A stretch of 64,000 nt of DNA, from the sequence record NC_018087.3. The stretch is one strand, 5' to 3'. Every line of letters starts with the position of its first letter. Within the stretch, counting starts at the first letter, position 1. Positions 13,911 through 60,451 of this stretch are shown here, piece by piece. The notes below the pieces were generated by a model, which worked only from the letters and a program-made list of their open reading frames with translations, had not been told where the DNA came from and made no database searches. A program made the translations under genes and the position numbers. The DNA is from Acinetobacter phage ZZ1.

Positions 13911-15202
13911 CCAACGTACAAGAGTTGTTGAGCAAGAGCAGGGTCCGCTTTATGCATACAGGGTGTATACAAAAATACGGAATCAACTGTTGAACCTTGT
14001 GATTTATGAACAGTTCCCACAGGTAACGCTTTAACTTTCAAGAAACTATTACGTAATTTCCACCAATCTTTCCAATTTGGTTTTGGGCCGTGTCCTTTCA
14101 TTGCTTTAAATTCTGATGCCGCACGGGATAAGTAGAACTGAAATTTATTTTGTTCTTGCTCATCTGAAATTACTTGGATTGTTGCGACCATATCAGAATC
14201 GACACCTCTAACATCTAGGGCCCAAGCTTTAATTGGTAATTTTTCTGCAAAAGTTTTGATTTCCAGATTAACTGTAATTTCTTTACAGTCATGAATACGC
14301 ACCAATTCACCATTATTAAAAATAGTTTCTGTAAACTTTTTACCTTCAAATGAGTGTGTCTTAATTAAAGGCTCTTGCATTACTAAAACTTCATGCTTAA
14401 TAAATGGTAATTCAGTTTGATATAAACGCTTACGAATAATAGCATTTAAAGAATCAACTGATTTATTTGTATATGCTAACATACGATTATCAAAAAGCGC
14501 ATCTGCGTCTGGAACAATTTCAAAATACTTTTGCATAAAGTTTGCAACAGATTTTCCAGGGGCATTTAAATTATGCACTCCGGCACCATCAACAAGATTT
14601 TCACGAATCCATGAACCATTGCGAATTTCGGTCGCAACTTTAATAATTGGAGCATTTGAACGCATAACTTCTGTTAAGTTTGCTTGAACAAAATGTTCAT
14701 TAAAAAAGAATGCAGACAATTCAGGAATAGATGAGCCTGGAGCAACCGGGCGGATTTGTGCAATATCACCAAGTCCAATAATTGTACACCAACGTGGCAC
14801 GGATGTCATTAAAATACGGAATAATTCACGATCATACATTGACACTTCATCACAAATTAATACACGACATTCACTAAGATCAGGCGCATCAGATTGTTCA
14901 AATGATGTTTGATCTTCATAATTTGTCGGACTAATTTTAAGTAATGAATGGATTGTATGAGCATCCATTCCGGCAAGCTTTGAAAGAATTTTCTTGGCCT
15001 GGTGTGTAGGTGCAGCAAGCATTACACCTTTTTCGCCCGAATCAATTAAATGATTAATTAAAAATTTTGTTAAAGTTGTTTTACCTGTACCGGCTGGACC
15101 ATTGATAGTAATATGCTTACCTTGCGTTTGCATTACTTCTAAAGCAGCATTAAATGCTTGTTTTTGCCCTTCATTCAAGTCATCAAATGTTAAATCGTTC
15201 AT
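13874..15202 (-). CDS. dda: Dda-like SF1B DNA helicase
   Basis: 442 aa. Walker A INGPAGTGKTT and Walker B-like LICDEVSM, plus a C-terminal SH3-like region. T4 Dda is 439 aa and sits next to dexA. Confidence 0.8.
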   Translation of the reverse strand: MNDLTFDDLNEGQKQAFNAALEVMQTQGKHITINGPAGTGKTTLTKFLINHLIDSGEKGVMLAAPTHQAKKILSKLAGMDAHTIHSLLKISPTNYEDQTSFEQSDAPDLSECRVLICDEVSMYDRELFRILMTSVPRWCTIIGLGDIAQIRPVAPGSSIPELSAFFFNEHFVQANLTEVMRSNAPIIKVATEIRNGSWIRENLVDGAGVHNLNAPGKSVANFMQKYFEIVPDADALFDNRMLAYTNKSVDSLNAIIRKRLYQTELPFIKHEVLVMQEPLIKTHSFEGKKFTETIFNNGELVRIHDCKEITVNLEIKTFAEKLPIKAWALDVRGVDSDMVATIQVISDEQEQNKFQFYLSRAASEFKAMKGHGPKPNWKDWWKLRNSFLKVKALPVGTVHKSQGSTVDSVFLYTPCMHKADPALAQQLLYVGCTRARTNVYFI

Positions 15203-16365: not shown

Positions 16366-17346
16366 TCAGATGTGATTATTGAGTAAATTATAACCTGTTT
16401 TATGTTTAAGCAACTTAACTATTGACGTTGATAATGGTAAACCATATGCAATCTTTTCACAGTCTGTTGCAGAAAGATTTTCAAAACGAATTAAAGCCGG
16501 TTTAATTAATTTTAAATCTTCAATAATCTCTCGCTGACGTTGAATGTCTGCGTACAATTTATCAGATTTGTCTTTATATGCATCAAGTTGTTTAGTTATA
16601 GTTTCAACTTCACTCGTATTGACATCTTCATATGCAGTTGAGGTCATTACACGTAACCCTTTAACAAACTTAGCTAAGAATGTTTTTTGTGCATTAATAA
16701 TAACTTCTTGACTTTTCAACTTGAGTTCAATTCTACCATTGGCTTTAGTTAAGTGCTGCTTTTCAGCTTTAGATGTTTTAGGATGAAGAATTTTCATCGT
16801 ATTCTTATCAATAAGGGCTTGACGTTCACCTAATTTTAGTTGGGCCGCAACTAAATTATTAATGGCACGACGATATTTGTCACACTTATGTGCAGGAATA
16901 ACATATTTTTTAATTAAAACTTGCTCTTTTTTACAAACATGTTTACTTTCATCTAATGAATTAAGACGAATATTTGTATCATAAATTGTACGTTCAAGTT
17001 CCATTAGAGCATGTTCAATTGATGTAATTTTATCAATACGATATTGAATTTCATTATCAATAGTTTTACTTGTTAAATTATTACGCAATGAATTATATTT
17101 CTTCATCACAGGTACAACGTTACCATTAATATAGCCTTTATCATTATCGATACGTTCCATCGTCATCTTTTTTTCTTCGATGGTATCGGAAAAAGGTAAA
17201 CCTGTATAAGCACAATGAGTTTGCAATTTCATATTAATAAATGCTTGCAAAGATAAAGTAAACTCGAGTTTACGTCGAGTTGCGTCTTTTTTCTTTGCAA
17301 TATAGCATTCAGCGAATTTAATATTCTGTTCTACAGTAGTAAACAT
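16366..17346 (-). CDS. hypothetical coiled-coil protein with possible degenerate HNH-like N-terminal motif
   Basis: About 326 aa. Start taken at the first ATG (17346); the track start at 17385 is a TTG. CAYTGLPF...ERIDNDKGYINGNVVPV loosely resembles an HNH motif in which the His is replaced by Arg. The remainder is Lys/Glu/Leu-rich coiled coil. Confidence 0.4.
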   Translation of the reverse strand: MFTTVEQNIKFAECYIAKKKDATRRKLEFTLSLQAFINMKLQTHCAYTGLPFSDTIEEKKMTMERIDNDKGYINGNVVPVMKKYNSLRNNLTSKTIDNEIQYRIDKITSIEHALMELERTIYDTNIRLNSLDESKHVCKKEQVLIKKYVIPAHKCDKYRRAINNLVAAQLKLGERQALIDKNTMKILHPKTSKAEKQHLTKANGRIELKLKSQEVIINAQKTFLAKFVKGLRVMTSTAYEDVNTSEVETITKQLDAYKDKSDKLYADIQRQREIIEDLKLIKPALIRFENLSATDCEKIAYGLPLSTSIVKLLKHKTGYNLLNNHI

Positions 17347-17454
17347 GGCAATATACTCATTTGTTGATAAAGCAATAATACACAAAAGATAAGATTATGT
17401 AAACCTTTAATAATTCGTTTGAATATTTTTTAACCAATCAATAAATGCAAAACT

Positions 17455-17568
17455 CGCTTTTCATAAAAAGCGTGTTATATTATGTATAATGCCCGGGCGG
17501 CCAGCCCAGGGGGGAGATTATATATGTCGGGGATGAATATAAGAGGCGTAGCCTCCGTCCGTAGGACG
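17455..17568 (+). repeat. structured intergenic element, copy A (H1 hairpin, TATAAT-like box, H2 and H3 hairpins) on the plus strand
   Basis: H1 cgcttttcataaaaagcg (17455-17472). tgtataat at 17483-17490. H2 gaggc-gta-gcctc (17543-17555). H3 cgtcc-gta-ggacg (17556-17568). A second copy lies at 60346-60451 on the minus strand and carries compensatory stem changes. Confidence 0.55.
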
Positions 17569-17591
17569 TAATTTGATAATTTAAATGTAAT

Positions 17592-17620
17592 AAAAAAGGA
17601 CGCGAAAGCGTCCTTAATTT
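17592..17620 (-). terminator. rho-independent terminator (ggacgc-gaaa-gcgtcc)
   Basis: aaaaaaggacgcgaaagcgtccttaatttt. On the minus strand the hairpin is followed by TTTTTT, directly after the macro-domain gene stop at 17620. It is symmetric enough to act in both directions. Confidence 0.6.
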
Positions 17621-18063
17621 TATAAGTATAAAACAACAATACCGACATCAGGTGTAACATCCTGGATAATCTCTGCAATTTCATCCCAGTTGCCACCGGC
17701 AATGCCCGCACCAATTTTTGGAATACCTAATACTTTCCCTTTATAATCAACGTTCAGCTTCGTGAATAATTCACGGATGTTTGCATATAGCTGGTTACGC
17801 GGGCATTTGCCGGGTCGATATTGTGTATATCCATTAATAATGTCGCCATAAACTGTAGTGGCTACAGAGTAATCACCCAATTTACCCCAATCACTGTATT
17901 CAGTTCGTTTATCGGCCTCAACTGCAACTGGGAATCGTCTTGCTATTTCTCCTGCTATTCCGGCTCCCATTGTATGGAAACAATTACAACCGTGGACAAT
18001 TGCATCAAAATCGGAATGTTCAAAAGAATCTAACAAATTATGTTGTACATAATACTTAATCAT
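17620..18063 (-). CDS. macro domain protein (ADP-ribose binding/hydrolase fold)
   Basis: 147 aa. AIVHGCNCFHTMGAGIAGEIARRFP and LGIPKIGAGIAGGNWDEI align to the macro-domain signatures (VNAAN...GGGVxxAI and FPxISTGIYG). Confidence 0.55.
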   Translation of the reverse strand: MIKYYVQHNLLDSFEHSDFDAIVHGCNCFHTMGAGIAGEIARRFPVAVEADKRTEYSDWGKLGDYSVATTVYGDIINGYTQYRPGKCPRNQLYANIRELFTKLNVDYKGKVLGIPKIGAGIAGGNWDEIAEIIQDVTPDVGIVVLYL

Positions 18064-20312: not shown

Positions 20313-20322
20313 TAAAAATATT

Positions 20323-20844
20323 TTAATAAAATGGTGAATATTCGCCCGTATTTAAAAATAAACGAAGTTTCTTTAATACTTCAACTTCGCCTAATCGTGA
20401 TCCCAGGTTGAAAATTGGAATATCATAATCAAATGCGATTCTTAAAGCCATTGCTGTACCACCGGTTAACTTTCCATCTGGTGTCCAACATACTACAAAA
20501 TCTACTGGTGTTTTTAGATCATCACCTAAAACAATTTGAGCATTCCGACCATGCATTTTACGAGCAGAGAAACTACATGCTTTCCAATTAGGATGATATT
20601 TTGCAGCAAAATCAATATGTCTTTGATACAATTCTGGTGTATCCGAATAAAATCCATTATATCCTTGCCAGGGTAACCATAAAACAGTAGATGACGGCGC
20701 ACCATCAAAGAAAGCTTTATCTGCGCCGATTGCTCCGCCTGTATGACAGATATGCCCAGCAGAATCAAGTTCTTTTGAAATTTGTCGCATGATTGCAAGA
20801 ATGTTCATTGGTGTTCGGCGACTACCGATGCCAGCATAATTCAT
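20323..20844 (-). CDS. SLOG/DprA(Smf)-like Rossmann-fold protein
   Basis: About 173 aa. Start taken at the ATG at 20844 (GGAG upstream; ATGA overlap with the upstream gene). NYAGIGSRRTP...HTGGAIGADKAFFDGA matches the DprA/SLOG GSR...SGGAxGxDxxAHxGA signature. Confidence 0.5.
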   Translation of the reverse strand: MNYAGIGSRRTPMNILAIMRQISKELDSAGHICHTGGAIGADKAFFDGAPSSTVLWLPWQGYNGFYSDTPELYQRHIDFAAKYHPNWKACSFSARKMHGRNAQIVLGDDLKTPVDFVVCWTPDGKLTGGTAMALRIAFDYDIPIFNLGSRLGEVEVLKKLRLFLNTGEYSPFY

Positions 20845-21089
20845 ACGATCTCCACATAAGTGCATTTATATTTTCGAGTCCATAATCGCATCATTTGTGA
20901 AAGGTCTCTTGCACTCCATTTTCTCCAACTTGATGGCGAATTTATTACAAAGGGCATTTGACCATTTCTATAATTTGAATATGAAGAATCACTTTTATGT
21001 AATTGAATTAATAAAGTAGCAGAACCATCTGCATTAAGTTTAATACATTTACGATTCTTTTTACTTAACATTGATGTAACACATTTCAT
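20841..21089 (-). CDS. hypothetical protein (82 aa; start revised to the ATG at 21089)
   Basis: GGAGAAGTTT precedes the ATG at 21089. The track start is a TTG. Confidence 0.4.
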   Translation of the reverse strand: MKCVTSMLSKKNRKCIKLNADGSATLLIQLHKSDSSYSNYRNGQMPFVINSPSSWRKWSARDLSQMMRLWTRKYKCTYVEIV

Positions 21090-29046: not shown

Positions 29047-30087
29047 TTAAATTTTCCTATATTTCATCATACGAACTTTAGCCATTAACCCTGATGCATA
29101 GTTATTAAGAATATAATCCTCAATCTGTTCAGGTGTTGCACCATCTTTAACAATCATATCATTAATATCTTTAGATGGCCATGGCGCAGAATCCCAAAAA
29201 CAAACGCTTTCTCCCGCATCAATAAGAGATTGCATACGTTTAAGAGTGTCTTCATGTCGGCATTCATTATCCATAACCCATATACGATTGCCTTCATATG
29301 GGACCTGGTCCAGACTTAATTTACCGCCTGTAATCGCACATGCATTTGATAAAAATAAACTGTCGAGTGGACCTTCTAACATTAATACCGGTTTCGATTC
29401 ATCGACTGTATCTTGGCCATAAATTTTTGTCGATTCTTCATCGACTTTAATAGTCATATATTTTACGCGTGATTCTTTAAGTGCTCTTCCTTGAAAAGAT
29501 TCGATTTGACCATCTTTATTAAAAATCGGAATGACTAATCGATACTCAGGCATTACTTTTGCAAATGTACCGGGTTTAACTTTATTACAAAGCTCTTGCC
29601 ATTGCGATGTAAACCATAATCGATTATACTTTTCAGTGGGAATCTTTCGAGCTTCAACATACTTAATAATTGGATGGGATTTTGGTAAAGTATCCAATCG
29701 TTGACAATAATCCAATTTTTCAATATGTTTTACTACGTCAGCCTTTTTGGGCTGAACATATAATTCTTTACCTGGTTGTGTGTATCGATTATTAGTTTTA
29801 TGTGCACCTTCTTTAAACTGCGTCATTTGGTAATTTTTAAATGCATCTTCATCATATTCACGTAAAAACATACCAAAGCTATTTGAATAATCACAGTTAT
29901 AGCAGTGAACGAATTTTGTACCCTTATGTTCATAATACCAAAATCGAGCCATAAAAGTATCTTTTGCTGAGTCCCCACACACAGGACAACTACAATTTAA
30001 TTTAAGGGGCATTGCTCCTACTTGTTTAAAGTTTCTCTGTAAAGAGAAATATTGCAATGCGTATTCATCATCAATAAAACTACTCAT
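29047..30087 (-). CDS. 61: DNA primase (T4 gp61-type; zinc-binding domain plus Toprim)
   Basis: 346 aa. Zinc ribbon CSCPVCGDS...HCYNCDY and Toprim LMLEGPLDSLF. T4 gp61 is 342 aa. Confidence 0.85.
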   Translation of the reverse strand: MSSFIDDEYALQYFSLQRNFKQVGAMPLKLNCSCPVCGDSAKDTFMARFWYYEHKGTKFVHCYNCDYSNSFGMFLREYDEDAFKNYQMTQFKEGAHKTNNRYTQPGKELYVQPKKADVVKHIEKLDYCQRLDTLPKSHPIIKYVEARKIPTEKYNRLWFTSQWQELCNKVKPGTFAKVMPEYRLVIPIFNKDGQIESFQGRALKESRVKYMTIKVDEESTKIYGQDTVDESKPVLMLEGPLDSLFLSNACAITGGKLSLDQVPYEGNRIWVMDNECRHEDTLKRMQSLIDAGESVCFWDSAPWPSKDINDMIVKDGATPEQIEDYILNNYASGLMAKVRMMKYRKI

Positions 30088-30105
30088 CTCAACCTCAAAT
30101 AAAAA

Positions 30106-30123
30106 GGGACCCTATTAGGTCCC
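30106..30123 (-). terminator. rho-independent terminator (gggacc-ctatta-ggtccc)
   Basis: aaaaagggaccctattaggtccc, after the stop at 30140. Confidence 0.5.
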
Positions 30124-30139
30124 ATTATATAATATAAAA

Positions 30140-30640
30140 TTAAAAAGCGTCCTCGTTATCCTCTTCAATTTCTGAAATAACGTCTTTTAATTTAGTACGT
30201 TTTTTACCAACTGTTTGTGGACCTGCTGAAGTCACTGCACCCGTAGTTGTACCTGACGCAATTTTTTCTGTATTTCCGCCCGCATCACCGGCCGTCATTT
30301 CTTCTGTAAGTATTTGAATACCTTCAGTCAATTCAGCAAGTTCAGACTCTGTAAGACCAAAGCGTGTGCCGATTGCCGATATAGAACTAGAAATTGTAGC
30401 CCATGTGCTAGCGCCGGGAACAGTTGAAACCATTTTCTTAAGAGCACGCACAGCACCATGAAATGGAGTGTATGCACTTTTTTCTTCATCTGTTTTTGGA
30501 CGTTTAATAACATTTCCACGTTCATCAATTACACCAACTTGGAATGCTTTCCACTCGCTAAAATCTTTTTGCATTAAGCGGATAAATCTATACGCAAAGG
30601 CCGAATCTAATGCGGTTTTAGCCGCGCCTGCAATACTCAT
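30140..30640 (-). CDS. hypothetical protein (acidic C-terminus, Thr/Gly-rich linker)
   Basis: 166-aa ORF directly upstream of the primase gene. Confidence 0.5.
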   Translation of the reverse strand: MSIAGAAKTALDSAFAYRFIRLMQKDFSEWKAFQVGVIDERGNVIKRPKTDEEKSAYTPFHGAVRALKKMVSTVPGASTWATISSSISAIGTRFGLTESELAELTEGIQILTEEMTAGDAGGNTEKIASGTTTGAVTSAGPQTVGKKRTKLKDVISEIEEDNEDAF

Positions 30641-49566: not shown

Positions 49567-49598
49567 CGGTCATTATAACATATATGACCGGCAAAGCA

Positions 49599-50558
49599 TT
49601 AGTTAAATTGCATTTCTTTAAGTAATTGGATAAACATATACACCAGGTGAATTTCCAAATTTGCACAAAGCCCTTTCATTTGATTATTTTCACCAATGAT
49701 TTCATACATTCGTAAAATTGAAACTTTGTTGACACGAGTATATAATTCGTTTGCCAATTTTTCAATAAAATTTGAATAATCCGGTGCATATTTTGCAGCC
49801 AATGCTCTAAGTTGTGCAAAGTCTTTGTTTTGAATTGCTGTAAGAACATCATCAATAGACCCACGAGTTTCCATAACAATAGACAGGATACCCGCATCAA
49901 TTTTGCCATTGGTTGAGTAATGATCTAATGCAACAATTGTTGACCGGAAGTCAGGGAAGTTCTTTTTAACTAATGCAGCTAATACTTTAGGCTCTTCAAC
50001 AACAATACCTTCGTTTTTACAAATTTCCATTGAACGTTGAATCATTTCACGCATCATTTGAACCGAATCTTCTGCAGTCGGTTGACCAAATTTAATAACG
50101 CGCGAACGTGAACGAATGGCTTCAAGAATACCATCAAGATTATTTGCCGTAATAATCAATGAACATGATTTGCCATATGATTCCATAAATGAACGCAAGT
50201 AACGTTGTGCCTCGCCAAGTTGTGCACGGTCAAACTCATCAAGAATAATAACTTTTTGTTTACCTTCTAATGATTTTGATGTTGCAAAACGAGTTAATTC
50301 ATTTTTAATGAAATCAATACCAACACCAGATCCGTTCACAAACATATATTCAGCATCGACATCATTACATAATGCATTTGCAACTGTAGTTTTACCGGTA
50401 CCGGGAGAATTTGATTGTAATACTAAATGAGGTAAACGTTTTTTCTTAACTAGACCACGAAAAATTTCTTTATCCGCGGCTGGTAAAATACACTCTTCAA
50501 TTGAACCTGGACGATATTTAAGTTCAAACATGTGCTCGCGTTCATTAACTGTTAACAT
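49599..50558 (-). CDS. 44: clamp loader large subunit (T4 gp44, AAA+)
   Basis: 319 aa. Walker A NSPGTGKTT, DEFD box and SRC-like sensor. Collinear with T4 gp44 (319 aa), which starts MITVNEKEHILEQKYRP. Confidence 0.9.
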   Translation of the reverse strand: MLTVNEREHMFELKYRPGSIEECILPAADKEIFRGLVKKKRLPHLVLQSNSPGTGKTTVANALCNDVDAEYMFVNGSGVGIDFIKNELTRFATSKSLEGKQKVIILDEFDRAQLGEAQRYLRSFMESYGKSCSLIITANNLDGILEAIRSRSRVIKFGQPTAEDSVQMMREMIQRSMEICKNEGIVVEEPKVLAALVKKNFPDFRSTIVALDHYSTNGKIDAGILSIVMETRGSIDDVLTAIQNKDFAQLRALAAKYAPDYSNFIEKLANELYTRVNKVSILRMYEIIGENNQMKGLCANLEIHLVYMFIQLLKEMQFN

Positions 50559-59158: not shown

Positions 59159-60319
59159 TTATTTACTATTAGGACGTCGTAAAATAGACAAAGCTGATTC
59201 AAGTGCTTGAATATCACCCAAAAGAAGTGTTGCCCTTGAATTTGCTTCTTTTGCTTTTTCCACATAGTCTTTATGCGATCGCATTAAAGAATCATGTTTT
59301 GATTTCATATCTTTAATACGTTCTTCAAGTTGGTCATCCAACGACTTGAGCAAGTCAAGAGGTGATCGAGCCTCAATTGTACTAGTAGTGATACGGCCTG
59401 CACTAGGCTGTACTAATGGTTGAACAATATTTGGACTAATTCTATCGTATGGATTTTTAAAAATATCGATACCTGTACCTAATGGTGGAATAGTTACATT
59501 TGATACAATCATATCATTTACCTTGGATGACGATTTAAAAATAACATCTAAATAATTTTCACCTACTGCAGTAGCAGATAAATTTGGGCACATATTTAAA
59601 AATATTAACCAACGGCGTTGATATTCTGTCGATCGATGTTGTACAGTACGATAATCATGTGATCGAAATGCAGAACGATTTGAATCACATGAATAAACAA
59701 AACGCAATCTTACGCCACTAAGTTGTTTTTCAATATAAATTTTCATGTCATATGATGCACGAATACATCGGCCTGACGAACTTTTTGAAATATAATGTGC
59801 GCCTTCTACATCACGAGAATTTGCTCGAGACCAACGTGCTTCCATTGGTACAAGTCGCGGCATATTTTCTAAGAACAAATCATTTAAAATATCACTTGAA
59901 TTTGCATCAGTAGACCACCAATGTGTATGAGCTAAACCATTTAAAATAATAGATTTTTGCTTAGCTAAAGGTGTAACATTTTTAGCAAATGCATTTAAAC
60001 GAGCACGTACTACTTTATCTGCGAACCATCGAGAACGAATAATACGCTTGGCAATAACATTAACATTGTTTAAGTGAATATCGCGTTCTAAATTAATAAC
60101 ACTTCTAATAAGACGTTCAATTTCTGGAGCAATCGGTGCAGAAGGCTCACCAAATCGAGTTATGGCATTAGTCAAATATACAATGTACTGGCTTTTAACA
60201 GTATGTGATAACGGAGTATAACTTTTTGCATCTCGTTTGATAGGTCCATTTAATTGAGTGATAACATCTTTAATAATAGTTGTAAGTTTGTTCTCAAGCT
60301 CTTTACGTATGTGTAGCAT
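59159..60319 (-). CDS. hypothetical Arg/Ser-rich protein with C-terminal coiled coil
   Basis: 386 aa. No recognisable catalytic motif and unusual basic composition. Bounded by structured element B upstream and an inverted-repeat hairpin downstream. Confidence 0.5.
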   Translation of the reverse strand: MLHIRKELENKLTTIIKDVITQLNGPIKRDAKSYTPLSHTVKSQYIVYLTNAITRFGEPSAPIAPEIERLIRSVINLERDIHLNNVNVIAKRIIRSRWFADKVVRARLNAFAKNVTPLAKQKSIILNGLAHTHWWSTDANSSDILNDLFLENMPRLVPMEARWSRANSRDVEGAHYISKSSSGRCIRASYDMKIYIEKQLSGVRLRFVYSCDSNRSAFRSHDYRTVQHRSTEYQRRWLIFLNMCPNLSATAVGENYLDVIFKSSSKVNDMIVSNVTIPPLGTGIDIFKNPYDRISPNIVQPLVQPSAGRITTSTIEARSPLDLLKSLDDQLEERIKDMKSKHDSLMRSHKDYVEKAKEANSRATLLLGDIQALESALSILRRPNSK

Positions 60320-60345
60320 TTTTAAATCCTCAAAACAATTATTTC

Positions 60346-60451
60346 CGTCCTACGGACGAGGGGCGAAGCCCCTATATCTATCCCGGCTTAAAGAGACAAA
60401 CCAATGGGCCAACCTTCGGTTTTATTATACACGCTTTTTAATGGAAAGCGA
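60346..60451 (-). repeat. structured intergenic element, copy B (H1, TATAAT box, H2 and H3 read on the minus strand)
   Basis: Read on the minus strand: H1 cgctttccattaaaaagcg, then gtgtataat, then H2 ggggc-ttc-gcccc, then H3 cgtcc-gta-ggacg. Same architecture as copy A at 17455-17568, with compensatory base changes in H2. Confidence 0.55.

Follow-up and report, generated by a model that had tools for sequence, protein, structure and literature searches.

Two intergenic elements of the T4-type Acinetobacter phage ZZ1, referred to here as copies A and B, are probably two of five dispersed paralogous cassettes, each combining a middle-mode (MotA/AsiA-dependent) promoter with a leader. Both lie in a 64,000-nt stretch of the phage genome (sequence record NC_018087.3), which was analyzed as a whole and is called the window below. 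The earlier note on this DNA described each element as a hairpin (H1), a TATAAT box, a variable segment, and two further hairpins (H2 and H3). This architecture, with ∼51 variable nucleotides, was read directly in both copies. The gene context also agrees with the orientations given in that note: copy A is opposite to the flanking genes srd and tk.4, both on the minus strand, and copy B is oriented in the same way as its neighbors.

Comparisons within the window confirmed that both elements are real and well beyond chance. The 13-mer forming H3 occurs exactly twice in the 64 kb, against an expectation of 0.10 even with two mismatches allowed. When copy B was compared with the window, two collinear HSPs were obtained on copy A (E = 0.008 each), with their order preserved and their spacing similar. 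Tandem hairpins with 5-6 bp stems and 3-nt loops were found in copies A and B only, and in none of 20 block shuffles. No other 78-nt stretch of the window is as rich in GC as the predicted transcribed core of copy A (61.5% vs. 33.7%), and the GC content of the copy B core falls within the top 0.08%.

Copy A is read on the plus strand. It is preceded by an AT-rich upstream segment (17430..17454), in which TTAACCAATCAATAAATGCAAAAC corresponds to GTAAACAAACAATTAATGGAAAG of copy B in a pairwise alignment. The H1 stem-loop (17455-17472) is CGCTTTTCATAAAAAGCG, i.e., CGCTTTT-CAT-AAAAAGCG; its 5′ arm CGCTTTT (17455-17461) constitutes a −30 element resembling a Mot box, and its 3′ arm reads GTG in phages W16 and Henu6, which creates a G·U pair. 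Two candidate −10 hexamers follow, 9 nt apart: TATATT (17476-17481), placed 14 nt past the box as in the Mot geometry, and TATAAT (17485-17490), which gives the leader length seen in the other copies. Both hexamers are retained in W16 and Henu6, where the intervening bases are altered. The GC-rich 5′ leader (17491..17525) contains a predicted 5′ hairpin (CCCGGGC..GCCCAGGG) and a G6 run, and 52 nt separate TATAAT from H2. Next come a conserved purine-rich box, GTCGGGGATGAATATAAG (17526..17543), which carries the family signature, then H2 (GAGGC-GTA-GCCTC, 17543-17555) and, directly after it, H3 (CGTCC-GTA-GGACG, 17556-17568), each with a 3-nt loop.

Beyond H3, an AT-rich spacer (17569..17595) leads to the bidirectional intrinsic terminator AAGGACGC-GAAA-GCGTCCTT (17596..17615, both strands). 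This predicted terminator ends the tk.4 mRNA on the minus strand and should also end the copy A transcript on the plus strand. It begins 28 nt beyond the hairpins, and phages of three genera, including AbTZA1 and Kimel, have an equivalent in the corresponding position. Its U tract is interrupted on the plus-strand side (TTAATTTT), so that read-through antisense to tk.4 is possible. By these predictions, copy A is a compact unit of ∼125 nt that runs from its promoter to the terminator and contains no conserved ORF. Because the unit is wholly intergenic, its putative RNA would be complementary only to untranslated read-through of the tk.4 mRNA and not to coding sequence; to reach the tk.4 coding sequence, it would have to read through the terminator.

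The spacer includes ATTTAAATGTAAT, which by eye is similar to the vestigial uvsY start motif (ATGATTTAGATGTAT) found in other copies. A 15-codon micro-ORF in copy A (MSGMNIRGVASVRRT, 17524..17571, plus strand), with GGAG 7 nt upstream, is probably fortuitous. Both substitutions that it carries in W16 and Henu6 are synonymous, and no counterpart was found in copy B or in other genera. A conserved leader peptide was considered and rejected, the copy B frame being closed by TAA and devoid of a start codon, and the copy A ORF having no counterpart.

Copy B is read on the minus strand. H1 (CGCTTT-CCATTAA-AAAGCG, 60432..60450) has the Mot-box-like 5′ arm CGCTTTC, and TATAAT (60424..60429) is located 14 nt past it. 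The 5′ leader (60388..60423) includes GTCTCTTTAAG, which is weakly boxA-like. The conserved box, GCCGGGATAGATATAG (60372..60387), is nearly identical to that of copy D of W16 (GCCGGAATAGATATAG). H2 (GGGGC-TTC-GCCCC, 60372-60360) is separated from H3 (60358-60346) by one T, and the leader between TATAAT and H2 is 51 nt long. The remainder of the 5′UTR (60317..60345) contains a Shine-Dalgarno sequence, GAGGA (60331-60327), and the ATG (60319-60317) of a 386-aa ORFan (59159..60319). Copy B is, from this arrangement, the predicted promoter and 104-nt leader (5′UTR) of this gene. The encoded protein has no Pfam or PHROG family and zero relatives in IMG/VR, and since the gene is an ORFan, orthologous upstream regions are unavailable for comparison. 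The fold z-score of copy B alone is only −1.5, and the AT content past its hairpins (77%) is unremarkable in the window.

By its geometry, H1 together with the box is a promoter of the MotA type (middle mode) and not an early σ70 promoter. The arrangement of (T/C)GCTTT 13-14 nt upstream of TATAAT is ∼8-fold enriched on the gene strand. The pattern GCTT-N14-16-TATAAT was seen 11 times against 1.34 expected, with 10 of the 11 on the gene strand and copy B among them, and CGCTT variants are common among the GCTT-type promoters of the ZZ1-like phage. No −35/−10 promoter was called at copy B: measured against the strong σ70-like early promoter of PeSLs (TTGACA or TTTACW, N17, TATAAT), the hexamer GTCGCT, placed 17 nt ahead of its −10 element, has two of six matches. 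In the two copies, CGCTTT(T/C) stands 14 nt before TATATT or TATAAT, a Mot box at the distance used to define PmSL motifs, with C and not T as its first base. The TATAAT hexamers of both copies are retained in W16 and Henu6 and agree with the excellent σ70 −10 element (TAtaaT) typical of T4 middle-mode promoters. The genes motA and asiA are annotated in the near-identical W16 genome (48341-49256) and in AbTZA1, and neither lies within the window. In T4, the MotA box is (a/t)(a/t)(a/t)TGCTTtA, centered at −30 and 12 ± 1 bp from the −10 element, and MotA tolerates deviations from the consensus (PMC2988021). The cassettes differ from this in having CGCTTT rather than TGCTTtA and a spacing of 13-14 nt rather than 12 ± 1. 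Both deviations are common to many promoters of the ZZ1-like phage, and the spacing of T4 PuvsY is itself 13 nt. The cassette leaders measure 100-140 nt, compared with 22-38 nt for the ordinary Mot-type promoters of the window.

The description of the element as two-copy holds for the window only; five are present in the genome, located at srd|tk.4, upstream of nrdC, at gp25|uvsY.-2, at gp34|rnh, and at gp3|gp2. AbTZA1 and Kimel also carry five each, four of them at the same sites as in the ZZ1-like genome, and these four are the sites shared in synteny with Hadassahvirus and Lazarusvirus. Copies A, C, D, and E occupy conserved junctions of the core genome and copy B precedes the ORFan; the site of the fifth copy differs between genera and adjoins ORFans. 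Among 51 Acinetobacter phages, five to seven matches were found in each. A profile of the ZZ1 copies matched Kimel copies #3 (E = 9e-6) and #1 (6e-5), AbTZA1 copy #1 (4e-4), and the uvsY promoter region of phage Ac42 (3e-3). Family members at the gene 25 site were identified in phages Ac42, 133, Acj9, and Acj61. In AbTZA1 and Kimel, the Mot box forms the 3′ arm of the promoter stem-loop. No gene follows copies A and E, whose orientation is opposite to that of the adjoining genes. The heptamers ATTAGAT/ATCTAAT are ∼10-fold enriched in the cassettes and absent from copies A and B. Literature searches found neither a description of the cassette family nor a transcriptome of these phages. H3 plus H2, scanned as an exact pattern against IMG/VR, had zero matches; because the stems are lineage-specific, scans of this kind are blind to relatives.

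All copies share the purine-rich box, located 30-41 nt after the −10 element, with the signature GYCGG(R)(R)A.AGA(A)TATA(A)G. A RegB cleavage site was considered and set aside: most boxes contain GGAG or GGAU, and their fit to the consensus of strong sites, GGAGRAYARAA (PMC3014915), is poor, with GGAA, GGAC, or GGTA in some copies.

Most copies also carry tandem perfect hairpins with 3-nt loops. Genome-wide, strict tandem hairpins of this type were found inside the cassettes only, while shuffled genomes gave 0-1 each. The strict copies comprise six distinct H2 and four distinct H3 stems, all Watson-Crick, and seven of ten pairs change on both sides. Copy D adds further variants, an H2 with the 4-bp stem GGGC and an H3 with GCACA and a 4-nt loop. 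The 80 cells of the stem alignment contain no G·U pair (100% Watson-Crick). This figure is partly circular, the aligned sequences having been picked because they pair, and the independent evidence is the genome-wide exclusivity. Pairs were counted on an ungapped, hairpin-only alignment, since an automatic MAFFT alignment of the box and hairpins misplaced the stems. Several loop sequences occur (GTA, TTC, TGC, ATC, GCA), and that of H3 flips from TGT to ACA between strains. The earlier note spoke of three covarying hairpins. Within the window this is true of H2, with one compensatory pair (A-U to G-C), and not of H1 and H3, which show no covariation there because they are identical in copies A and B. 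True covariation of both H2 and H3 emerges only after copies from the rest of the genome and from other genera are added. Further copies and covariation outside the window, which had been set as a test beforehand, were thus both found.

No global leader fold common to the copies was detected beyond the local hairpins. In the window, Rfam gave no match at the gathering score (the best sub-threshold hits had E ∼1 or worse and were structurally poor), and a tRNA/tmRNA scan yielded nothing. H2 and H3 of copy A were not called as terminators, the sole strong bidirectional site being 17596-17615, and H3 of copy B received a weak terminator call (tail AATAATTGTT). The absence of U tracts, together with a separate canonical terminator 28 nt further on in copy A, indicates that H2 and H3 are not just bidirectional terminators of flanking genes.

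In the mechanism that we propose, RNA polymerase with AsiA-remodeled σ70, acting with MotA, would use (T/C)GCTTT (∼−30) and TATAAT (−10) once early proteins appear. H1 would form a stem-loop across the box and spacer, an arrangement shared with PeSL/PmSL motifs and T4 PuvsY. Transcription would start ∼7 nt after the −10 element, and the resulting leader would be unusually long and rich in GC, beginning with a 5′ hairpin, leaving the purine-rich box single-stranded, and then forming the tandem perfect hairpins H2-H3. The copy B transcript would run on into the 386-aa ORFan, to which the cassette would contribute the promoter and 5′UTR. From the geneless copy A, 27 AT-rich nucleotides followed by the bidirectional terminator would yield a free RNA of about 125-135 nt. 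The cassette may have originated from the uvsY promoter/leader beside gene 25, with the box and H2 replacing the former uvsY ribosome-binding site.

Such an origin is suggested by the position of copy C after gene 25, where it is the counterpart of T4 PuvsY/oriF: oriF is annotated between genes 25 and uvsY in the T4 record, with the uvsY transcript as primer RNA. In Ac42 and 133, uvsY directly follows the cassette, which there still serves as its predicted promoter. In AbTZA1 and the ZZ1-like phages uvsY was not detected, and the cassette is kept there, in multiple copies. The cassette was apparently copied from the uvsY promoter/leader region beside gene 25, the oriF position of T4, the homology of the ZZ1-type cassette to the Ac42 uvsY promoter resting on the E value of 3e-3 and on position.

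T4 has been a model for R-loop-primed replication for forty years. As an addition to the cassette explanation and not its exclusion, we consider, as a less likely reading, that the cassettes may be R-loop replication origins of the T4 oriF/oriG type, a family copied from an oriF module. The MotA-dependent transcript would then stay hybridized downstream of the promoter, displace the non-template strand, and prime leading-strand synthesis, and the palindromes would fold in the displaced DNA or in the RNA, marking or stabilizing the R-loop. Copy C lies exactly at the oriF position in the 25|uvsY gap, and the module was kept and multiplied although uvsY is not detected. The minimal oriF and oriG of T4, ∼100 bp each, consist of a middle-mode promoter followed by an AT-rich unwinding element of ∼50 bp, and T4 has five active origins (PMC3016281), as many as there are cassettes per genome. 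The 30 nt after H3 of copy A are 90% AT, which is the top 0.3% of the window; this stretch is, however, just 27 nt long before the terminator, and that of copy B is ordinary. Stems of Watson-Crick pairs only, with no G·U, and the flip of the H3 loop from TGT to ACA favor a palindrome at the DNA level. The leader GC skew is not consistently G-rich, copies D and E being C-rich.

Positions in T4 give a divided picture; the comparison took in oriF, oriG, and oriE, while oriA and oriC carry no annotation in the sections of the T4 record that were used. Two of the five copies, A and E, are geneless and face their neighbors, like the non-coding promoters of oriG (ori(34)) and oriE, which fire against late genes and whose primer RNAs are antisense to genes 34 and 5, respectively. 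In addition, copy D adjoins gene 34 and copy E lies near the gene 2-5 block. However, oriG and oriE are inside genes 34 and 5 and not in intergenic gaps, show no sequence relation to the cassettes, and leave oriF as the only exact positional match: oriG is 2.1 kb inside gene 34, and 3.3 kb separate the 3|2 junction from oriE, whose RNA has the opposite sense relative to genes 2-5. T4 oriE, moreover, has an early promoter and 12-nt iterons (PMC3016281). With ∼60 middle promoters in T4, nearness to one of them is cheap as evidence, and for copies B, C, and D a role as gene promoters is explanation enough. The T4 origins have no common sequence motif (PMC3016281), and what makes a middle promoter an origin is therefore hard to define. 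It is conceivable, though doubtful, that the five cassettes are the origins of these phages, the oriF module having given rise to copies at four other places, of which two are non-coding and antisense. A comparably speculative extension is that the module was retained after uvsY was lost, with a DprA-like mediator in its place. If true, this would be the first T4-type phage lineage with one recognizable sequence module at all its origins, and the origin determinants would be directly testable by copy swaps or deletions.

The promoter-to-terminator layout of copy A, kept in position and orientation in three genera and without a conserved ORF, is compatible with a small structured RNA transcribed from its own promoter, as the earlier note suggested. 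We consider it unlikely that copy A (and E) encodes a trans- or cis-antisense small RNA of ∼125 nt that times gene expression. Partners of such an RNA, at the same low likelihood, would be phage or host messages or transcripts reading through from tk.4 into srd. The segment 17490-17625 of copy A (136 nt, terminator included) folds better than its shuffles (z = −3.6). Its H2 and H3 are unchanged in W16 and Henu6, i.e., invariant in the three ZZ1-like genomes, while the rest of the intergenic region has diverged more than its flanks (94% vs. 97.5%). Against this stand the lack of an Rfam match and of G·U pairs in the stems, and a 5′ half (the would-be seed) that is not conserved between copies or genera. 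Furthermore, the module is an mRNA leader in copies B, C, and D, and a function in cis therefore fits better.

Equally improbable is that the hairpins are DNA or RNA punctuation (a terminator, attenuator, or insulator of the REP-like or PeSL kind) that blocks read-through both ways, and there is as little reason to view the antisense copies A and E as tolerated, functionless relics of cassette recombination. PeSL stem-loops terminate or attenuate transcription without classical U tracts, and their cassettes recombine (PMC2839356). Perfect palindromes operate on either strand, and on the gene strand tk.4 is followed by the terminator, the complements of H3, H2, and H1, and the early promoter of srd (17403-17375), so that these signals stand in series between the two genes. 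The variable, ORFan-adjacent site of the fifth copy would likewise suit recombining cassettes. However, H2 and H3 have no U tracts on either strand and a good terminator score is reached only at 17596-17615, while in copy B the hairpins lie within the 5′UTR of a gene read in the same direction, whose expression a terminator would work against. In three genera, the Mot box of copies A and E has stayed intact and their TATAAT perfect, at unchanged sites in surroundings that have turned over; selection for promoter activity accounts for this better than relic status does. A processive antitermination signal of the nut or put type, in which boxA-like sequences and hairpins would modify RNA polymerase, is highly improbable: the cassettes are promoter-proximal, multi-copy, present in both orientations, and provided with adjacent hairpins, and CGCTCTAA(A/T)T of the Lazarus/Hadassah copies and GTCTCTTTAAG of copy B resemble boxA CGCTCTT(T)A, but copy A has no boxA-like sequence and C, D, and E no convincing one, recognition by a protein that reads loops, as N does, is unlikely given loops that are unconserved and even flipped, put stems are far larger than these hairpins, and in copy A the signal would immediately precede the very terminator meant to be overridden.

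As promoter-leader cassettes, the family provides a compact, alignable module of ∼150 bp, with five copies per genome of which two are geneless. In at least three genera of A. baumannii phages used in therapy, four of the five sites are conserved. The cassette can serve as an annotation marker for middle-mode starts and probable non-coding RNAs at places now annotated as "none", and repeats of ∼100 bp may mediate rearrangements or break assemblies in phage-therapy genomes.

Several known systems resemble the cassettes in part. REP/BIME elements are short, GC-rich, perfect or near-perfect intergenic palindromes, often paired, that act as RNA and DNA; individual REPs measure ∼35 nt, occur by the hundreds in a genome, and are linked to RAYT transposases. 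The cassettes share the short, GC-rich, paired intergenic palindromes and differ in their 5-6 bp stems and 3-nt loops, always within one promoter cassette, and in the number of five per genome. The nutL/nutR sites of lambda and putL/putR of HK022 are promoter-proximal, multi-copy RNA signals with hairpins in opposite orientations. The cassettes match them as promoter-proximal hairpin signals with at least two copies in opposite orientations, and depart from them in the lack of a conserved boxA in copy A and of conserved loops, in having no identified N-like partner, and in stems far shorter than those of put. T4 PuvsY, which coincides with the replication origin oriF (ori(uvsY)), has its Mot box 13 nt from TATAAT and a spacer hairpin, CACGT-TAAA-ACGTG, placed like H1; its leader, in contrast, is short, A-rich, and unstructured, without recognizable sequence similarity, and it exists as a single copy.

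The closest kind, to judge from the sequences, are the PeSL/PmSL cassettes: intergenic promoters of ∼100 bp with a stem-loop overlapping or adjoining the promoter boxes, repeated within a genome (PMC2839356, PMC4122927). The PmSL variant, with a TGCTT Mot box and a −10 element, was described for vibriophage nt-1 (PMC4122927). Neither report contains PeSL/PmSL motifs from Acinetobacter phages: Comeau et al. (2014) never use the word Acinetobacter (PMC4122927), and Arbiol et al. (2010) mention Acinetobacter phages solely for the split polymerase gene (PMC2839356). In copies A and B, H1 spans the box and spacer, as the stem-loop of PeSLs/PmSLs does. PeSLs/PmSLs are associated with ORFans and with variable loci, among them the region of the split gene 43, and have promoter and terminator activity and recombine between copies (mini-circles); of the cassettes, copy B precedes an ORFan and copies A, C, D, and E occupy conserved core-genome junctions. 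The 3′ end of PeSLs/PmSLs is made up of a Shine-Dalgarno sequence and the start codon of the next gene, which are present in copy B (GAGGA, ATG at 60319) and absent from copy A. The idea of a mobile promoter plus stem-loop cassette thus holds insofar as the element is composite, repeated, present in both orientations, and found once before an ORFan. It fails for PeSLs proper: no −35 element, and hence no early σ70 promoter, was found, Mot-box geometry is present instead, and there are five copies and not dozens. Four of these five are syntenically fixed across genera, whereas PeSLs cluster in hyperplastic regions, and two copies face their neighbor genes without a closing Shine-Dalgarno sequence and start codon. 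The leader of 100-140 nt with its conserved purine-rich box and tandem perfect 3-nt-loop hairpins is also unlike PeSLs/PmSLs as described. Even if the cassettes are not replication origins, they extend the PeSL/PmSL idea to a class that is low in copy number, fixed in synteny, and equipped with a long structured leader.

The sequence of the window was inspected directly, and every feature of the architecture that the earlier note had ascribed to two intergenic cassettes, copy A at 17455-17568 (+) and copy B at 60346-60451 (-), was present. Copy B gave two collinear matching blocks with copy A (E=0.008 each), one comprising the promoter stem-loop H1 and the promoter, the other a purine-rich leader motif (the box) and the tandem 3-nt-loop hairpins H2 and H3. 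Two exact occurrences of the H3 13-mer were counted in the 64 kb, against 0.10 expected even with two mismatches allowed. In a strict search, adjacent pairs of 5-6 bp hairpins with 3-nt loops were found in the window only in copies A and B, and none appeared in 20 window shuffles. The transcribed cores of both copies are GC islands in a genome of 34% GC, that of copy A having the highest GC content among the 78-nt stretches of the window. Of the three hairpins described as covarying, only H2 shows any covariation within the window, and little of it: one of its pairs is compensatory. H1 and H3 are identical in the two copies.

The 234-nt gap that holds copy A is bounded by srd, encoding an anti-sigma factor (16366-17346, -), and the macro-domain gene tk.4 (17620-18063, -). 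Copy B is flanked by genes for proteins of 237 and 386 aa, two genes upstream of nrdC. The regions around both copies are 97-98% identical in vB_AbaSt_W16 (W16) and Henu6, which are Zedzedvirus zz1 (Straboviridae, Twarogvirinae); among ZZ1-like genomes, the copy A gap is 94% identical versus 97.5% for its flanks. H2, H3 and the -10 hexamers in W16 (copies A and B) and Henu6 (copy A) are the same as in the window, and the H1 3' arm reads GTG, not GCG, giving a G.U pair. A T4-early-like srd promoter (TTTACA, 17 nt, TATTAT; 17375-17403, -) lies in the stretch from copy A to the start of srd; in the direction of the gene strand it is preceded by a terminator and then by the complements of H3, H2 and H1.

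The element had been taken to be two-copy, but the genome has five copies: three further ZZ1-type copies (C, D and E) were read in W16 outside the window, at gene 25, gene 34/rnh and gene 3/2. A profile built from the five ZZ1 copies found no further copy in the window, cross-detected copies of AbTZA1 (Hadassahvirus) and Kimel (Lazarusvirus) with E down to 9e-6, and matched a cassette in Ac42 (E = 3e-3). In AbTZA1 and Kimel a cassette lies downstream of the tk.4 homologues (IMG/VR), antisense as in copy A, in the order TGCTTTA stem-loop, TATAAT, leader, purine-rich box, two hairpins, AT-rich stretch and bidirectional terminator; its adjacent hairpin stems (GCTGC-TGC-GCAGC and CGGCGC-TKY-GCGCCG) are quite unlike those of ZZ1. 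BLAST with this region gave matches in 51 Acinetobacter phages, at 5-7 places each. Whole-genome reading of AbTZA1 and Kimel located five copies in each: at srd/tk.4 (antisense), in the split gene 43 region, after gene 25, at gene 34/rnh and at genes 2/3 (antisense). From these sites and those in W16 it follows that four are common to three genera. The fifth varies: in ZZ1-like genomes it precedes an ORFan near nrdC, and in AbTZA1 and Kimel it occupies the gene 43 gap. Two tandem cassettes follow gene 25 in Acj9 (L130, 1640-1840), each with TATAATGGTTCAC.. and a box GGGTCAGAATATCTATCAGAA. The 810-nt 'intergenic' gene 3/2 gap of W16 is filled by an unannotated ORF (L122, ~17210-17860, -) carrying HNH homing-endonuclease motifs (..HHIIPKCQGGTDEPTNLVELTPEEHYVAHQ..), to which the predicted copy E RNA would be antisense.

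In the common order, a Mot-type promoter (MotA-box-like geometry) accompanied by a stem-loop comes first, then a 5' segment that is rich in GC and not alike from copy to copy. The box, GYCGG(R)(R)A.AGA(A)TATA(A)G, lies 30-41 nt past the -10; in most copies tandem hairpins come next, and AT-rich sequence closes the order. Where present, the hairpins follow the box directly or lie ~55-60 nt further on. Cassette leaders measure 100-140 nt, versus 22-38 nt for the window's other Mot-type promoters. In copies C and E the box is followed by two ATCTAAT/ATTAGAT heptamers 9 nt apart (W16 L121 5140-5190 (-), L122 17165-17195 (+); Kimel L111); the heptamers also occur in Lazarus and Hadassah copies, are ~10-fold enriched over the genome, and have no exact match in window copies A and B.

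Strict tandem hairpins were confined to cassettes in the window (2/2), AbTZA1 (2/2) and the first 50 kb of W16 (1/1), with 0-1 in shuffles; in AbTZA1 copy #1 and W16 copy D they are slightly off-pattern. Among the strict copies, H2 has six different stems and H3 has four; copy D adds one of each. In the H2/H3 alignment 80/80 pair cells are Watson-Crick and 7/10 pairs are changed on both sides, a pairing percentage that is circular because the aligned sequences were picked for pairing; the independent evidence for the hairpins is their genome-wide exclusivity to cassettes. The H3 loop of the Lazarusvirus srd/tk.4 copies (L116 to L118) is TGT or ACA depending on the strain, with identical stems (L115 and L118 compared with L114, L116, L117 and L119). 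To judge from the sequences, the loop has been inverted, as is typical of DNA palindromes. The absence of G.U pairs and the flip from TGT to ACA suggest a role for the H2/H3 palindrome in the DNA itself or on both strands, with loops that are not read sequence-specifically.

No -35 element was found in the promoter call. The H1 5' arm, CGCTTT(T/C), lies 14 nt ahead of TATAAT in copy B and of TATATT in copy A. GCTT-N14-16-TATAAT was counted 11 times in the window, with 1.34 expected; 10 of these sites lie on the gene strand, a short way ahead of genes, several with CGCTT. In T4 middle promoters the MotA box, (a/t)(a/t)(a/t)TGCTTtA, is 12 +/- 1 bp from TAtaaT, and deviations are tolerated (PMC2988021). 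H1 and the TATAAT box are thus a predicted middle-mode promoter, and we infer its MotA dependence from the enrichment of this geometry, the likeness to the T4 consensus and the annotation of motA and asiA in W16 and AbTZA1, at positions outside the window. At other Mot-type promoters an inverted repeat brackets the -10, an arrangement different from that of the cassette (GCCGGTCAT..TATAAT GACCGGTG, GGTAGAAC..TATAAT GGTTCTACC and the compensatory variant GATAGAAC..GGTTCTATC; window 49572-49605 (-), AbTZA1 ~14020-14060 and 29780-29820 (+)). At 30085-30148 (-) in the window, a Mot-type promoter, CGCTTTTT..TATAAT, is directly followed by GGGACC-TAAT-AGGGTCCC and a T run, with a gene start 38 nt downstream; the hairpin and T run look like an attenuator.

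In the T4 record the replication origin oriF lies in the gene 25/uvsY gap, and its primer RNA is the uvsY transcript. The T4 uvsY promoter consists of ATGCTTCA, 13 nt and TATAAT, and its spacer contains a small hairpin. At the gene 25 site of Ac42 and phage 133 the cassette is followed directly by uvsY, and the 3' end of the box (TAGGAG) aligns with the Ac42 uvsY ribosome-binding site. Acj61, AbTZA1 and Kimel carry ATGAT(A)TTAGATG at this place, then a uvsY.-2 homologue; the motif looks like a frameshifted uvsY start. No tblastn match to uvsY (E<=1) was found in the whole AbTZA1 genome (L080-L083) or in ~98% of a ZZ1-like genome (the window plus W16 L121 and L122). The uvsY-less phages have a DprA-like recombination mediator gene (window 20322-20927, -), whose product may have replaced the UvsX loader in phages without detectable uvsY. 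From the gene 25/oriF position, the uvsY of Ac42 and 133, the box alignment and the apparent uvsY start relics, we infer that the uvsY promoter and leader gave rise to the cassette family, which persisted when uvsY was lost and spread to other sites by copying; H2 would now stand at the place of the old uvsY ribosome-binding site.

We read the cassette as a predicted middle-mode promoter with a structured leader. Copy B would supply the 386-aa ORFan with its promoter and its 5'UTR of 104 nt; no Pfam match, PHROG family or IMG/VR relative was found for the ORFan. Copy A has no conserved ORF and would yield an RNA of ~125-135 nt, stopping at the terminator 17596-17615, an equivalent of which is at the same place in other genera. 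In three genera, copies A and E occupy fixed sites and have kept their promoter elements intact with no gene to express, so transcription there, or its RNA, is probably under selection. A 15-codon ORF (MSGMNIRGVASVRRT; 17524-17571, +) with GGAG 7 nt upstream was seen within copy A; its only two substitutions in W16/Henu6 are both synonymous, and neither copy B nor the other genera have a conserved counterpart.

The most attractive rival is that the cassette is an R-loop replication origin of the oriF type. Minimal T4 oriF and oriG consist of a MotA promoter and an AT-rich element (PMC3016281), and T4 oriG and oriE likewise use non-coding RNAs antisense to late genes. However, we consider an origin rather unlikely, because the position matches exactly for oriF only and the AT-rich element is unconvincing in copy B; were it true, the interest of the cassette would rise to high. 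Other rival readings see in the cassette a regulatory small RNA, an insulator or relic, or a nut-like signal.

The ZZ1 genome paper (PMC4177764) does not mention the cassette, and a literature search found no transcriptome and no other description of it. That paper reports '114 bp inverted terminal repeats' for the ZZ1 assembly. Cassette copies show inverted similarity over roughly the same length, and dispersed inverted cassettes might confuse assemblies, which is pure conjecture. Two deposited genomes, AbTZA1 (NC_049445, 1-91) and KARL-1 (2-115), start exactly inside a cassette, which is consistent with assemblies breaking at ~100 bp cassette repeats.

As a promoter with a structured leader, the cassette has its closest kind in PeSL (early promoter plus stem-loop) and its middle-promoter variant, PmSL. 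The proposal of a mobile cassette of the PeSL kind stands as regards the promoter/stem-loop composite, which is shared, and, at copy B, the association with an ORFan. Unlike PeSL, the cassette lacks the defining early promoter; unlike both, it is present in five copies, four of them at fixed sites, and has a long leader with the box and tandem hairpins, which is new here.
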